From the IMG/VR virus record IMGVR_UViG_3300044729_002678, positions 64,001 to 128,000 of that record: DNA of 64,000 nucleotides, one strand, 5' to 3'. Source of the stretch: a virus. This document shows positions 14,477 through 30,462 of the stretch, in pieces. The stretch's first letter is position 1; the number at the start of each line of letters is the position of its first letter. Below the pieces are notes generated by a model. The model was not told the DNA's origin. It saw only the letters and a list, made by a program, of their open reading frames with translations, and ran no database searches. Position numbers and translations under genes: made by a program.

Positions 14477-16243
14477 TTATTTTTTATGTGATTTAAATCC
14501 CTGTCCCTTCATCCACCAAGCCAATGCCCAAGGATTATCAATACCCGGTTCATCTTTCATCGCTTTTACTGTTTTTTTCCATCCTTCGGGTGCAACTTCG
14601 TTGGTTACTTGTTTATTTTCCACAAATGGTTTAAAAGCCGAAATAACTTTATCTGCTGTCATTTTATCAAATTTGCTTTGCATTGCAACATCACCAACTT
14701 TGTATAATTTCAACAACTTTTCTGCTGTTTTCTTATCAACTTTTGTAGAACCAACGCGGGAAGTAGAACCATCTACTACACTCTTTAACAAGTCAGATAA
14801 TTTTACATTTGCTTCATTTACTTTTTTTTTTAAAATAAGATTTGATAGTTTCATTTCACCAACAAAATCTTTTGCATTTTCTTTATCTTGCGGGTCTACA
14901 TCGGTTACTTTATAAGTCTTACCACCAACAGTGAAAGTATCCTCACCTGCTGCAATTGCTCTTGCTCTTTCAGCACCAAATTCATTACCTTCATCCATTA
15001 CGATTTCTGCATCACTCAATTTTCCTTTAACAAGACCACTTACAGTTTTAATTACAACTTCGTTACCTTTAACAGAATAAACCATTCCTGTCTTATTTTG
15101 TGATTTAAGATGGACGGTATCTCCAAACTTTGGTTTTTTTACTTCCTTCACTAAATTTTGAAATTTCATCAATACAATTGCGTAATTACCCACTTTTCTT
15201 TCTGCACCAGCTGCGTATTTTTTATTTACAATTGCAATAGTGTTCCCAGATACTTTAATTATATACATTGGTATCATTTCAGTTGAGAAATCATATTTAA
15301 TTCCTGCTTTTTTCAATTCAGAACCAACGTTCATAAATGATGATGCGTTTTTAACTGCCGCTTCAATTTTATCTAAATCAGCATCGTATTTACCTTCGTT
15401 TACTGATTCTTTAATAACATTCTCCATTAATCCAATTGCAATATCTTTAACTTCTCTTTCTGCACCAGCTGCATATTTTTTATTTACAATTGCAATAGTG
15501 TTTCCAGATACTTTAATTCTATACATTGGTATCATTGAAGTTGAGAAATCATACTTTACACCAATTTTCTTTAATTCAGAACCAACGTTCATAAATGATG
15601 ATGCGTTTTTAACTGCTGCTTCAATTTTATCTAAATCAGCATCATACTTACCTTCATTGATTGATTTTTTGTTTATTAATTGACTTAATTTCATGTTTTC
15701 TCCTACAAAATCTTTTGCATTTTCTTTATCTTCGGAATCTACATCCGTTACTTTAAATGTTTTATCACCAACTTGGAATGTATCTTCACCTGCTGCAATT
15801 GCTCTTGCTCTTTCAGCACCAAATTCATTACCTTCTTTTATTTCGTAATATTTACCCAATATCTCACCAATTTCATCATAAGACGATTCCAACCTTTGCT
15901 GGAGAGTTGATACTTCTTTGATAGTGTTTGTAAAAATCTTAAAAGATTCGTTCATAGATTTCATATGACGAGAAACAGTTACCTTATCAAACCAATCACC
16001 AGTTTCTTGTAAAGTTAATTTATGAGCGGTTTCAACAATCTTTTTAATGTTTTGGTATGCTTCCATCAAATTACCATTATGGTAAATTGCCTCACCAATT
16101 TTTCGGTATGAAGCAACTGCCTCAACAAAAGCCCTTTTTTCTTCATTGGTCATTTTTGTATCATCCAAATCTTCCTCACCAATGTTTAATCTACGATAAT
16201 CCATATGCTGTGATTCTTTTAATAAGTTAAATAGTTTTTTCAT
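14477..16243 (-). CDS. Modular putative head-internal polyprotein
   Basis: Two duplicated modules; linkers KSINE, KESVNE, KKVNE, VTNE; located in the head gene cluster. Confidence 0.65.
   Translation of the reverse strand: MKKLFNLLKESQHMDYRRLNIGEEDLDDTKMTNEEKRAFVEAVASYRKIGEAIYHNGNLMEAYQNIKKIVETAHKLTLQETGDWFDKVTVSRHMKSMNESFKIFTNTIKEVSTLQQRLESSYDEIGEILGKYYEIKEGNEFGAERARAIAAGEDTFQVGDKTFKVTDVDSEDKENAKDFVGENMKLSQLINKKSINEGKYDADLDKIEAAVKNASSFMNVGSELKKIGVKYDFSTSMIPMYRIKVSGNTIAIVNKKYAAGAEREVKDIAIGLMENVIKESVNEGKYDADLDKIEAAVKNASSFMNVGSELKKAGIKYDFSTEMIPMYIIKVSGNTIAIVNKKYAAGAERKVGNYAIVLMKFQNLVKEVKKPKFGDTVHLKSQNKTGMVYSVKGNEVVIKTVSGLVKGKLSDAEIVMDEGNEFGAERARAIAAGEDTFTVGGKTYKVTDVDPQDKENAKDFVGEMKLSNLILKKKVNEANVKLSDLLKSVVDGSTSRVGSTKVDKKTAEKLLKLYKVGDVAMQSKFDKMTADKVISAFKPFVENKQVTNEVAPEGWKKTVKAMKDEPGIDNPWALAWWMKGQGFKSHKK
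14943..15835 (-). repeat. Dispersed duplication of the EGNEFGAERARAIAAGEDTF module
   Basis: 50 identical nt at 14943-14992 and 15786-15835; similarity continues through KENAKDFVGE. Confidence 0.95.
15198..15655 (-). repeat. Tandem duplication of the EGKYDADLDK...KKYAAGAER module (258-bp period)
   Basis: 15198-15397 is nearly identical to 15456-15655. Confidence 0.95.
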
Positions 16244-16257
16244 TTCATTTCCTTTTT

Positions 16258-28094: not shown

Positions 28095-28116
28095 AACTTT
28101 TTATATAAATATATAA

Positions 28117-30462
28117 TTAATAGAATAAACCTAAAATTTGATTAATCGGAGCGAAAACTCCAGTAAGTTTCAGAGTATTGCCTTTATATACAAAAACAAT
28201 TCCTTCTTTTGGAACAATTTTATTTACACCACCAATCGCTTCTAATCTTTCTAATTCCATTTTAAGCTTAGCAACTTTCTTAGGGTCTCCACCCGTTTTA
28301 ACATCTTTAATAGTTTGGTCTAATCTCGTTTTAATACTACGAATTGCTTCATCGGGATTTACAGTTAGTACTGAACTCATAAATGATAATACCTCAGAAC
28401 CAACACCCAAAAATATATCCTCAAATGGTCGAATATTATCTTTTGATATTTTTTGGTGGTCGTTTTTATCCACACCCAATGCCCATTGTAATACTTTTTC
28501 CGATTTAATTGTTTTGTTACTTAATCCAAAACCTTTATTAAAGAATGCCCACCTTCTTATTAATCCGTCTTTTGTTTCTTTATCTAACTTTTCAGGTGAA
28601 TTTTTTTCTATGTAATCATCCCACCAAGCCTGATGATACTCTGCCATACCATAGCTATCTTTTAACCCAAATTTAGATTGTAATTTTTGCAACATCCCCA
28701 AAAACTTTGGTTGTAATTGTTTTAAGCTTTCCTCTTTTGGTAATTGAGTAACGGGTGGTCCTTGTATGGTATATTTGTCTTGAACATGCTGATTTACTTG
28801 TTTAATCATCCCAGCTAATACGGTAGCATCAGATTGCTCTGCTCCAATTGCCACACCACTATCATCGTATTCAGTTGTGTTATGAAATACTAATAGAGCC
28901 TGACCATAAGGTATTACATTTACGGAGGTTGGATAAATAACCTCTAAGTTCATAAATTTCTTACCCTGCTTAAATATTTTGTCCCGTTGTGCTTTGGATA
29001 AACTACCCATTGCTTTTTCTAAATCTTTCATAGCAAAGTTGTAAGCATCAGTTAATCCACCTCTACCAGCAAATTTAGTAGCAACATCCTTTATGGACAT
29101 TGCGTTTTCACCACTATTTGCTAAATGCCCTTTATTTCTTGCAGCAATTAATCCCCTATCATCTCTCCAGCTAATAGCAAGTGCTTGGCCATCTGTTTTT
29201 TCTCGAGTCAGTTCAAGTTCACCATTTAGGGCTTTTGTTATTATGTTTTTTAAATCACCAAAAGTTAAATTTAATTCATTATCAAATGGATGATTCATAT
29301 GACCGTATGCACCACCTTCGGTTAAAAAGTTGGAAAACCTTTTACCAATAGTTTCCAATAATTTATATTGTTTTTTATCTAATATTTCTAGTTTTTTACC
29401 AAGTACCCACTCAACAACCTCATAACCCATTCCTCTATATACTTCTTTTAAATCAACATCTTCTAATCCAGTTATTTCAACCTCCGGCGCATTTTGGGTA
29501 GTATCTAACGGAGATGTTGCCAGGTCAGCAGTTAAATAATCTTCGGTTTCAGGAATATCCAACAAATCATCCATTGTGAATACCTTTCTCCTACTTACAT
29601 ATTGATAAAAATCACCAGTACCTTTTGCACTTTTTCTAACCATTACATCTGCTTTTGGAAAATGCATTTGGGTATATCCACCATTTACAAACCAATAATC
29701 ATTTTTTTGTGCACCTTTTCCTAGTCCTAATATTCTTTCTTTATTATCTGGAACATAAATTGCATCAGGTTCTCCTGCATCCGCACCATATCCGCCACCT
29801 AATGTCGATTCAATTAGGGGAACTATATTATAATTTTGTAAAAAATTGGTTACTATTTCGTTTACACCACCCAACCTTTTAGAAATCATATTAAATATTT
29901 CCTGATTCCATTGTGGGTATGCTTTCTTAAAACCGGCTTTCTTTTGTGAATCGCTCCCCTTCGATAACCAATTACGAACATCAGTTCCACTTATTGGATT
30001 CTTTTGAGAAGGTGATACATACACATACCCATGGTCTTTATAACCAAATGCGGGTTTGAAACCATCGCCCGAATGAAATTTCTTAAAATACTTTCCACCA
30101 AGTCTTGCAGCGTCTTTCTCACCAACAACAGTTACAAATGCGGTTGTTTCATCTGAAAACTTTTTTAGTATTTCCGTTGGATTATATGGATTTTTTACTT
30201 GAACAATTTTGTTGGGTGGAACACCAAACATTGTGGTCATTATTTTTTTCTTCTCCAAAAAATTGAAAGGGTCTTTTGGTCCACCACTTTTGTTGGATGT
30301 CCCAATGAATACATTTTCTTTACCGAATTTTGATACTAAATGCGCATATGTTGCGTAATGCCCTTTATGAAATGGTTGAAATCTACCCGCGTAAACTACA
30401 ACAGTCTTATTTACTTCTTCGGTTAATACAGATTTAACCCATTCTTTTATTAAATTTCCCAT
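28117..30462 (-). CDS. Fusion of HIGH-motif nucleotidyltransferase and a KxDG ligase-like domain
   Basis: AGRFQPFHKGH...ISGTDVR (cytidylyltransferase-like); GGAYGHMNHPFD...EKTDGQ...EGIVF C-terminal domain; leader MGNLIKEWVKSVLTE; TATTTATA at 30468-30475. Confidence 0.7.
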   Translation of the reverse strand: MGNLIKEWVKSVLTEEVNKTVVVYAGRFQPFHKGHYATYAHLVSKFGKENVFIGTSNKSGGPKDPFNFLEKKKIMTTMFGVPPNKIVQVKNPYNPTEILKKFSDETTAFVTVVGEKDAARLGGKYFKKFHSGDGFKPAFGYKDHGYVYVSPSQKNPISGTDVRNWLSKGSDSQKKAGFKKAYPQWNQEIFNMISKRLGGVNEIVTNFLQNYNIVPLIESTLGGGYGADAGEPDAIYVPDNKERILGLGKGAQKNDYWFVNGGYTQMHFPKADVMVRKSAKGTGDFYQYVSRRKVFTMDDLLDIPETEDYLTADLATSPLDTTQNAPEVEITGLEDVDLKEVYRGMGYEVVEWVLGKKLEILDKKQYKLLETIGKRFSNFLTEGGAYGHMNHPFDNELNLTFGDLKNIITKALNGELELTREKTDGQALAISWRDDRGLIAARNKGHLANSGENAMSIKDVATKFAGRGGLTDAYNFAMKDLEKAMGSLSKAQRDKIFKQGKKFMNLEVIYPTSVNVIPYGQALLVFHNTTEYDDSGVAIGAEQSDATVLAGMIKQVNQHVQDKYTIQGPPVTQLPKEESLKQLQPKFLGMLQKLQSKFGLKDSYGMAEYHQAWWDDYIEKNSPEKLDKETKDGLIRRWAFFNKGFGLSNKTIKSEKVLQWALGVDKNDHQKISKDNIRPFEDIFLGVGSEVLSFMSSVLTVNPDEAIRSIKTRLDQTIKDVKTGGDPKKVAKLKMELERLEAIGGVNKIVPKEGIVFVYKGNTLKLTGVFAPINQILGLFY

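Follow-up and report, generated by a model that had tools for sequence, protein, structure and literature searches.

Gene modules joined by a recombining, putatively protease-cleaved linker near the prohead protease and terminase genes of a far-T4-like phage

We report that the 161.6-kb genome of a far-T4-like myophage, T4-like and aquatic, encodes proteins built as strings of small modules, and that the short linker between these modules is conserved in its DNA beyond codon bias and serves as a recombination point. Reading from sequence, we lean towards the view that genes of this type (A, B, D, E, F and H) encode cargo polyproteins of the prohead, which would be cut at their linkers by a protease of the T4 gp21 type, shuffled at the linker DNA and delivered together with the phage DNA. 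The window, meaning the whole stretch of 64,000 nucleotides analyzed here, lies within this genome. The six ORFs singled out by a first-pass annotation are all present on the minus strand, and the leaders and linkers it quoted are found in the sequence; they are listed here with their neighbors (arrows mark predicted cuts):

14142..14462, minus strand: 106-aa protein, an N-terminal module and a KOW-like module, without leader
14477..16243, minus strand: gene A, 588 aa
16258..17202, minus strand: gene B, 314 aa, with leader, B1 module, KOW-like module, B3 module and B4 module
17199..17846, minus strand: prohead protease of the T4 gp21 family (Pfam Peptidase_S77, PF03420, E 2e-32; phrog_207, E 5e-55)
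17839..18366, minus strand: 175-aa protein adjoining the protease
24897..26654, minus strand: gene D, 585 aa, about eight modules, the C-terminal one being phrog_7595
26668..27162, minus strand: gene E, 164 aa, a 20-aa leader ending V-L-T-E↓A, then one conserved domain
27167..27511, minus strand: gene F, 114 aa, start TTG at 27511, a 20-aa leader ending I-V-E↓D and a basic Gly/Lys-rich domain
28117..30462, minus strand: gene H, 781 aa, a 15-aa leader (V-L-T-E↓E), an NMNAT/cytidylyltransferase-like domain, a middle region, F-L-T-E↓GG and a ligase-like domain

The products of A, B and D are strings of modules (median length about 76 aa) joined by E-S-(V/I/L)-(N/T)-E and then G, A or S. That of A runs from a 10-aa leader through a conserved helical module, A1 (11-137), X1, an internal leader-like stretch, Y1, Y2, a KOW/SH3-like module and X2 to another internal leader-like stretch and a C-terminal module. 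Its DNA holds two repeat pairs, one of 246 nt at 87% identity (15167-15412 and 15425-15670) and one of 181 nt at 81% (14822-15002 and 15665-15845). The AF2 model of A shows confident beads parted by low-confidence linkers, with confidence dips at 129-138, 186-195, 279-288, 416-419 and 466-479 that fall at the linkers; the model of B, with a mean pLDDT of 51, was unusable. Modules proposed to recur across genes fared unevenly. The GNEF/GNAF module shared by A and D aligns in BLASTP (E 6e-5), the KOW/SH3-like unit claimed for three genes is confirmed by its fold in A, while the 106-aa ORF shows it through a weak similarity of sequence (E 6.5e-4), and the KVDKK/KVDSY (Z1/D2) similarity gave no BLAST alignment. 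A YgxA-like match of A1 was borderline, at 26.6 bits where the cut-off is 27, and we take A1 only as a helical bundle.

The plain (V/I/L)-x-E pattern initially put forward as the linker is as frequent in the terminase or in a 279-aa protein as in the candidates; because its counts gave no discrimination, we adopted the stricter E-S-(V/I/L)-(N/T)-E, which is informative. The 217-ORF genome has three instances of ESVNE, all confined to A, B and D, with 0.8 expected genome-wide. Across 415 distinct linker sites, which delimit modules with a median of 76 aa, P5 is Glu in 80%, P3 is Val, Ile or Leu in 81, 13 and 6%, P2 is Asn or Thr in 92 and 8%, and P1' is Ala, Gly or Ser in 71%. This is the format of a gp21 substrate: an aliphatic P3, Glu at P1 and typically a small residue next.

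A protease of that family is encoded in the window and, as Peptidase_S77, in 4/4 complete linker-carrying relatives; the His and Ser columns of its alignment with T4 gp21 are invariant. Homology anchors two reference sites in this phage:

12432..12443, minus strand: predicted maturation cleavage site of the major capsid protein, L-V-T-E60↓A61, by homology to T4 gp23
17316..17327, minus strand: predicted C-terminal self-processing site of the protease, P-V-N-E↓G just past the protease domain, by alignment with relatives and T4 gp21

The capsid site aligns column for column with L-T-E65↓A66 of T4 gp23, its Glu and Ala being invariant in four sequences. The site after the protease domain reads (V/M/I/L)-(N/G)-E and then G or S in all relatives aligned, and T4 gp21 has I-T-E↓S near that position. 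C-terminal processing of gp21 is reported, and its L/I-X-E cleavage rule and a 10-aa capsid targeting sequence are documented (PMC9026906). Both of this phage's own reference sites (V-T-E↓A in the capsid protein, V-N-E↓G after the protease domain) bear the linker motif, and it is because of this identity that we predict cleavage at the linkers. The earlier proposal that the linkers are sites for a gp21-type protease agrees with what homology to T4 gp23 and gp21 leads one to expect.

Leaders ending in Glu, likened in the first-pass annotation to those of T4 internal proteins, are indeed conserved in front of unrelated mature domains in the A, E, F and H families. In the E family, 20/20 homologues carry a leader of variable length that ends in hydrophobic-x-E right before the conserved core, and one homologue is an F+E fusion in which the leader is retained internally. 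The same ending lies within 2 residues of the conserved core in 101 of the 114 homologues of F, and the leader of H is conserved in the relatives L013 and Mel-JY01; that of D, with 7 residues, is weak. The N-termini of T4 IPII/IPIII, gp24, gp22 and gp67 have this format too. Neither Pfam nor PHROGs gave an internal-protein match, and in sequence the leaders are unlike that of T4. Since they also occur internally, the leaders may be spacers and not targeting signals.

A feature that the first-pass annotation missed is that the linker is also a DNA element:

15394..15409, minus strand: linker 16-mer, ESVNE↓G, between Y1 and Y2 of gene A; exact match, rearrangement breakpoint in L012
16707..16722, minus strand: linker 16-mer, ESVNE↓A, gene B; exact match, rearrangement breakpoint in L012
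16878..16893, minus strand: decayed linker, ESVKK, gene B; 2 mismatches to the 16-mer, intact ESVNE in L006 and L012
26000..26015, minus strand: linker 16-mer, ESVNE↓G, gene D; 1 mismatch

Allowing up to 2 mismatches, the 16-nt word occurs 5 times, against 0.03 expected. Inside linkers, Val is GTA in 24/24 cases, Asn is AAC in 19/25 and Ser is TCA in 22/29, compared with 0.39, 0.27 and 0.33 for the same codons elsewhere in these genes. Conservation at the nucleotide level means that part of the linker's constancy is owed to something other than the protease. The 16-mer is present in at least 120 IMG/VR stretches, and the linker-carrying genomes span 160-340 kb; one copy, in a 2967-aa ORF of differing composition in L054, looks like a chance match.

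Recombination at this element is visible among relatives. Flanking core genes are 95-100% identical, yet A and B range from 227 to 667 aa with different module sets, and module positions vary across 1775 representative relatives of A. Gene D is 98% identical and collinear in L005, and its N-terminal or middle module differs in L007, L008 and L013. The B3 module of gene B (240 nt) has a 100% identical copy inside gene A of L012, in L010 the N-terminal half of the 106-aa protein is joined to a Y module, and gene H of L089 carries foreign modules, flanked by ESVNE/ESINE, between its two enzyme domains. At chimeric junctions the breakpoints lie inside linker codons, with flanks identical over 120/120 to 240/240 nt, and 20% of HSP ends are located no more than 2 aa from the motif, compared with 3.8% at random. 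Comparing module order among relatives had been suggested as a check on a cassette system, with a fixed collinear order counting against it. Order and content differ, orthologues are not collinear, and modules pass between genes exactly at linkers. These comparisons show that recombination occurs in frame at a coding microhomology, and this holds independently of the protease question. Single-linkage clustering of 757 linker-delimited segments gave 207 clusters, 151 of them singletons, and one giant chained cluster, and owing to this chaining we take it only as a rough sign of diversity.

We propose the following route for the candidate polyproteins. At the N-terminus, a short amphipathic leader closing with hydrophobic-x-Glu would guide the precursor into the scaffolding core, in the manner of the T4 capsid targeting sequence. 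The gp21-type protease would cut after Glu at (V/I/L)-(N/T)-E↓(G/A/S), the type of site found on the capsid protein and on the protease itself, so that folded modules, mostly basic and about 65-100 aa long, would be set free within the head. At the 15-17-nt linker sequence, as the comparisons among relatives show, in-frame recombination moves, deletes and duplicates modules within and between genes and phages, so that a workable precursor results from any module order. The freed pieces probably remain with the DNA and enter the host, which is the weakest step, and there they may act in DNA binding, in counter-defence or as enzymes such as the NMNAT-like/ligase-like protein. Speaking against the route, genes D, E, F and H are not beside the protease gene but 2-8 kb upstream of that for the terminase. 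From the overall interpretation in the first-pass annotation, the cassettes, the protease-site linkers and the Glu-ending leaders are upheld, and our verdict is confined to those parts. More tentatively, and with greater doubt than we attach to the route itself, the linker may be a dual-use element, selected as a protease site in the protein and as an in-frame recombination site in the DNA. Such "exon-shuffling without introns" could build combinatorial, head-packaged and host-injected modules, including NMNAT-like/ligase-like enzymes, in an arms race with host defences.

Cleaved products need not be cargo: they might be accessory proteins of the prohead core or scaffold, like T4 gp67, gp68 and gp22, whose fragments are discarded or fill space, with neither host delivery nor an effector role. 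On the ORF map, A and B do lie between the protease and scaffold genes; homologues of the 175-aa core-region protein in L030 and L036 carry ESVNE-flanked modules inserted between conserved N- and C-terminal parts; and T4 core proteins are cut to several fragments that mostly leave the head (PMC9026906). We nevertheless find this unlikely, as the pieces in AF2 are folded domains of 7-11 kDa and not short peptides, hundreds of module types, quickly gained, lost and passed on horizontally, fit variable cargo better than a structural scaffold, and the enzyme domains of H are part of the same system.

Less probable again is that these are ordinary multidomain proteins which are never cut, the linker persisting for the sake of its DNA, a recombination site, with ESVNE only its translation. 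The mapping of breakpoints to linker DNA suits this explanation, as does the conservation of synonymous positions far beyond codon bias, even across phages whose proteases are only 55% identical. There is also a precedent in the PeSLs of T4-type phages, short conserved DNA cassettes that drive modular shuffling (PMC2839356). A pure DNA element fits less well with linkers in which up to 6/15 bases are changed and which still read aliphatic-(N/T)-E plus a small residue, variants such as ESLTE and ESITE keeping the residue types with other codons. The reading frame is fixed, at 112/118 sites in ORFs of 100 aa or more and with none in another frame, the motif is that of the homology-anchored capsid and protease sites, and N-terminal leaders, which are not recombination junctions, end in it as well.

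That these are non-virion accessory proteins acting in the infected cell, with generic amphipathic N-terminal helices as leaders and an incidental location among head genes, strikes us as improbable: although D, E, F and H have neighbors of unknown or metabolic function, and Lys-/Glu-rich N-termini are common in an AT-rich genome, the leader pattern, picked after seeing the data, is limited among 217 ORFs to head-assembly proteins and candidates (the capsid protein, A, B, E and H, a looser form adding the scaffold and protease), linkers cluster by the protease gene in 4/5 genomes (8/14 sites in five genomes at most 2.5 kb from it on the same strand, 0 in a reversed-pattern control), and the capsid maturation site has the identical motif.

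Packaged, linker-cut polyproteins would make this locus a new variant form of the T4 theme of internal proteins with a capsid targeting sequence. The T4 internal proteins (IPI, IPII, IPIII, Alt) share with it the gp21 protease family and a short N-terminal propeptide ending in hydrophobic-x-Glu before Ala, Ser or Gly, with diverse mature parts that have only the leader in common, and T4 phages are thought to load varied proteins by means of it (PMC3012670, PMC9026906). Each T4 cargo, however, is a separate small gene product with one cleavage, whereas here many modules with internal sites share one polypeptide; moreover, in sequence the leaders are not homologous to the T4 capsid targeting sequence, the genes lie around the protease and terminase, and the junctions double as a DNA recombination element. 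The locus is also reminiscent of the polyvalent proteins of phages and conjugative elements (Iyer et al. 2017, PMC5512222), which have many domains per polypeptide near virion genes in highly variable architectures and are proposed to be packaged, processed and delivered with DNA. Several domains per phage polypeptide in a virion-gene context are found here too. Polyvalent proteins, though, carry recognisable enzymatic or effector domains and often their own peptidase, whereas our modules of 65-100 aa belong to no known family, are joined by a regular conserved linker and have as presumed processing enzyme a separate prohead protease. Effector or enzyme Pfam families of the polyvalent class were absent from A, B and D, and only H has enzyme-like domains.

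In giant phages of the phiKZ-like/SPN3US type, many head-internal proteins (inner-body and ejection proteins) are likewise extensively cut after Glu by a diverged gp21 homologue, at S/A-X-E and with several sites in a propeptide (PMC9026906); those are large paralogous proteins that shed propeptides and not strings of shuffled modules, and a conserved nucleotide linker is not described in their case. PeSLs (2010, PMC2839356) resemble the linker in that short conserved DNA borders variable units whose recombination explains insertions, deletions and replacements between near-identical phages. They are, however, intergenic promoter and stem-loop units moving whole genes, while the linker is 15-17 nt of coding sequence in one frame, moving modules inside genes: conserved short DNA at the borders of exchanged units is found here, and the intergenic promoter with terminator stem-loop is not.

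If linkers are cut in the prohead, environmental T4-like phages would have here a general and abundant means of loading their heads with cargo and of diversifying it, extending the model of one gene and one leader for T4 internal proteins to self-assorting polyproteins. Virion-internal proteins could then be predicted in metagenomes by a concrete sequence rule, and a very large set of small, uncharacterised domains with a possible part in the earliest moments of infection would come into view. Engineered phage heads might also be loaded with cargo by following the leader-plus-linker format, and the locus clearly catches domain shuffling in nature as it happens.

Searches of Pfam, PHROGs, PDB sequences and the ESM Atlas matched the modules to no family of known function, and no cultured phage in the phage collection has B modules; we found no papers on Mel-JY01 and none on the virion content of immuto. 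A promoter-like word upstream of the portal gene, H and a 200-aa gene was dropped as not clearly above chance (29 matches, 20.5 expected). Gene H matches Pfam CTP_transf_like and NMNAT in the PDB, and the domain of F is annotated as DUF6321 in cyanophage records. Cyanophages carry F- and D-type modules between their terminase genes without such linkers, suggesting that some modules may have roles other than cargo.

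The window covers positions 64001-128000 of a single virus record of 161,618 bases with an estimated completeness of 84%, and nearly all of its genes lie on the minus strand. A T4-type head module spans 10.9-22.8 kb and encodes, in order along the window, the major capsid protein, an acidic scaffold protein, ribosomal protein bS21, a 106-aa ORF, gene A, gene B, a Peptidase_S77 (T4 gp21) protease, two small proteins, the portal and the large terminase. The major capsid protein is 53-58% identical to those of Flavobacterium phage immuto and Microcystis phage Mel-JY01 and 28% identical to T4 gp23. 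Genes D, E, F and H are located 2-8 kb upstream of the terminase gene. The genes of interest are:

14477-16243: gene A, 588 aa, string of modules (including A1, X1, X2, Y1 and Y2)
16258-17202: gene B, 314 aa, string of modules (including B1, B3 and B4)
17199-17846, minus strand: prohead protease
24897-26654: gene D, 585 aa, string of modules (including D1 and D8)
26668-27162: gene E, short leader ending in hydrophobic-x-Glu
27167-27511: gene F, leader of the same type
28117-30462: gene H, leader of the same type

The bS21 gene (13869-14126) is part of the head-gene cluster, with gene A's neighbour on one side and the scaffold gene on the other, and is conserved in close relatives and in Mel-JY01. 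The scaffold protein (12643-13734) carries three tandem acidic Glu/Asp-rich repeats of ~16 aa each, and its 20 (V/I/L)-x-E sites are the densest of all proteins in the region. An A/T-rich 10-mer on the minus strand (21155-21164, 24602-24611, 28103-28112 and 30467-30476) stands a few bases before the starts of the portal gene, a 311-aa gene, a 200-aa gene and gene H; with 29 matches overall against 20.5 expected, the word does not clearly exceed chance.

All ORFs, leaders and linkers quoted in the first-pass annotation could be located in the window. The plain (V/I/L)-x-E pattern that it used as evidence has no value, being equally frequent in the terminase and elsewhere in a proteome rich in Lys and Glu. 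The informative linker is E-S-(V/I/L)-(N/T)-E with G, A or S as the next residue, and the entire genome has three copies of its ESVNE form, one apiece in A, B and D.

These linkers delimit mobile cassettes. Scanning IMG/VR with gene B yielded 18 loci, the closest of which share with the window protease, 175-aa, 106-aa, bS21 and scaffold proteins that are 82-100% identical; their variable part is the pair of genes that the protease and the 106-aa ORF enclose. Among relatives, B is 227-531 aa long and A 418-664 aa, and locus L010 encodes both as a single 667-aa fusion. The same modules are found in differing orders and genes with a linker at each boundary, which bears out the cassette part of the first-pass proposal. 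Gene A itself has two clear duplications within it. With A as query, a full HMMER search returned 1775 cluster representatives, in which A1 and Y modules occupy many different positions in proteins 103-794 aa long; the best 150 of the 1775 contain 186 copies of E-(S/T)-(V/I/L)-(N/T)-E in 59,790 residues. Of the ends of local alignments, 20% lie no more than two residues from (V/I/L)-(N/T)-E, compared with 3.8% of random positions. Over 415 distinct sites, the linker has Glu at P5 (80%), Val, Ile or Leu at P3, Asn (92%) or Thr (8%) at P2, Glu at P1 and Ala, Gly or Ser at P1' (71%), with a median linker-to-linker spacing of 76 residues.

Modules also enter other proteins. Homologues of the 175-aa protein that adjoins the protease keep their N- and C-terminal parts in loci L030 and L036 and carry four to five ESVNE-flanked modules between them. 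In an H homologue of L089, a D-type coiled module and a KOW-like module, flanked by linkers, lie between the NMNAT-like and ligase-like domains; in the window's H the ligase-like domain begins after F-L-T-E|GG, and in L021 it is a separate leader-bearing protein.

Junctions between rearranged genes fall in the linker codons. Module B3 of the window's gene B is located in gene A of relative L012, where the left junction pairs an A linker's left half with the B linker's right half, the right junction is of the reciprocal type, and the flanks are identical to the respective window genes over 120/120 to 240/240 positions. The same linker codons are the breakpoints for L012 gene B and for the rearrangements of L006. 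Recombination within a stretch of ~9-17 nt in the linker thus relocates cassettes while keeping them in frame.

The linker is conserved as DNA as well as peptide. Its 17-nt coding sequence is identical in all three ESVNE copies, and a 16-nt linker word has five matches in the window at two or fewer mismatches, against 0.03 expected. Codon choice is strongly biased inside linkers, even where protease identity is as low as 55%.

Codon use inside linkers and elsewhere in the same genes
Val GTA: 24/24 inside linkers; 0.39 elsewhere
Asn AAC: 19/25 inside linkers; 0.27 elsewhere
Ser TCA: 22/29 inside linkers; 0.33 elsewhere

At least 120 IMG/VR stretches carry the exact 16-mer, and as many as six copies can lie within 1.3 kb. 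Across 80 of these (loci L024-L103), 112 of 118 sites are read in frame as ESVNE in ORFs of at least 100 aa, and none of the 118 is read in either of the other two frames of such ORFs. The protease falls inside the short flank in 31 of the 80 loci, and four complete genomes (186-340 kb) with the 16-mer each encode an S77 protease. Of 14 sites in five genomes, 8 are no more than 2.5 kb from the protease gene and share its strand; the reversed word, used as a control, had no matches. The rarer linkers ESLTE, ESITE and ESLNE keep their residues despite changes at up to 6 of 15 bases, so selection acts on the linker peptide in addition to the DNA.

T4 gp21 cleaves after the Glu of L/I-X-E and is itself processed C-terminally (PMC9026906). 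The known T4 gp23 bond E65|A66 aligns with L-V-T-E60|A61 of the window's capsid protein, whose Glu and Ala are invariant in an alignment of four sequences. Directly C-terminal to the conserved protease domain, every relative carries (V/M/I/L)-(N/G)-E and then G or S (V-N-E|G in the window), and T4 gp21 has I-T-E|S near the corresponding position. Because the pattern of these two homology-anchored sites (P3 Val, P2 Thr/Asn, P1 Glu, P1' Ala/Gly) equals that of the linkers, the latter are well-motivated predicted sites of the prohead protease and are probably cleaved by it. In L003 (LR756508.1, a 484-kb uncultured phage), the protease homologue is a 574-aa ORF (4559-6283) that matches in its N-terminal 81 and C-terminal 120 residues; the ~370 aa between could be an intein or an inserted domain.

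The leaders show a similar format. A-family proteins begin M-K-(K)-L-x-x-L-L-(K/N)-E then Ser. A leader ending in hydrophobic-x-E stands directly before the conserved core in 20/20 E homologues, where the leader may be short or long, and in 101/114 F homologues; the H leader is kept in L013 and more loosely in Mel-JY01. One representative from the A search joins a long E/F-type leader directly to a Y module via ESVNE, tying E and F to the cassette set. In the cultured relative Flavobacterium phage vB_FspM_immuto, the 841-aa protein immuto35A_191 combines a leader of matching type with ESVNE/ESLNE sites. A leader pattern chosen after the data had been seen matches, among 217 ORFs, only the capsid protein, A, B, E and H, and a looser one adds the scaffold, the protease and one 89-aa ORF. 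The latter (46817-47086 of the genome, minus strand, outside the window) lies among tail genes and has a leader-like N-terminus that ends I-N-E|G, the only one of its kind beyond the head-gene region. In the T4 record, the N-termini of IPII, IPIII, gp24, gp22 and gp67 have the same format. The first 10 residues of IPIII are its capsid targeting sequence (PMC9026906), and T4 internal proteins are diverse, with the targeting sequence alone conserved (PMC3012670). We thus have good reason to regard the leaders as putative, and rather likely, propeptides. Leader-like stretches inside gene A, also reported at first pass, and in an F+E fusion are as expected from gene fusion.

An AF2 model of gene A (mean pLDDT 64) resolves X1, Y1, a KOW-like module and X2 as confident beads (82-96), with dips at 129-138, 186-195, 279-288, 416-419 and 466-479 that coincide with predicted junctions. 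Foldseek matched the KOW/SH3-like folds to SPT5 KOW domains and NdhS. Most modules are basic (pI 9-10), and none matched a known family in Pfam, PHROGs, PDB sequences or the ESM Atlas. Head retention, injection and effector activity of the pieces, taken jointly, are candidate roles that we propose tentatively.

This system would work like the internal-protein/capsid-targeting-sequence system of T4 and the extensively processed head proteins of phiKZ-type phages, and resembles the "polyvalent proteins" proposed to be packaged (PMC5512222). Unlike all three, it is a regular string of small cassettes with one conserved linker that doubles as an in-frame recombination site, an arrangement for which a literature search found no published description. 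At the DNA level, the nearest precedent is the gene shuffling that PeSLs mediate in T4-type phages (PMC2839356), where the elements are intergenic.

Gene H encodes an NMNAT/cytidylyltransferase-like domain and a second domain with no match in Pfam or PDB sequence searches. The latter carries a K-x-D-G motif, typical of covalent nucleotidyltransferases (ligases). If packaged, H would be an injected enzyme. Module D1, a Tyr/Ala/Trp-rich motif near the N-terminus of D, is split by an insertion of ~70-140 aa in two relatives of the window's gene (L007:16-1893 and L008:11-1801). The insertion ends T-G-N directly before the Ser where the module resumes and looks like an intein; this would single out D1 as a conserved module of functional importance. 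T4-like cyanophages have the F domain under the annotation DUF6321. In Synechococcus phage Sf-CH8 (L144:6007-7215), this domain, preceded by a three-residue "leader", M-K-E, opens a 403-aa protein whose gene lies between those of the small and the large terminase, and the C-terminus of this protein resembles module D8 (phrog_7595).
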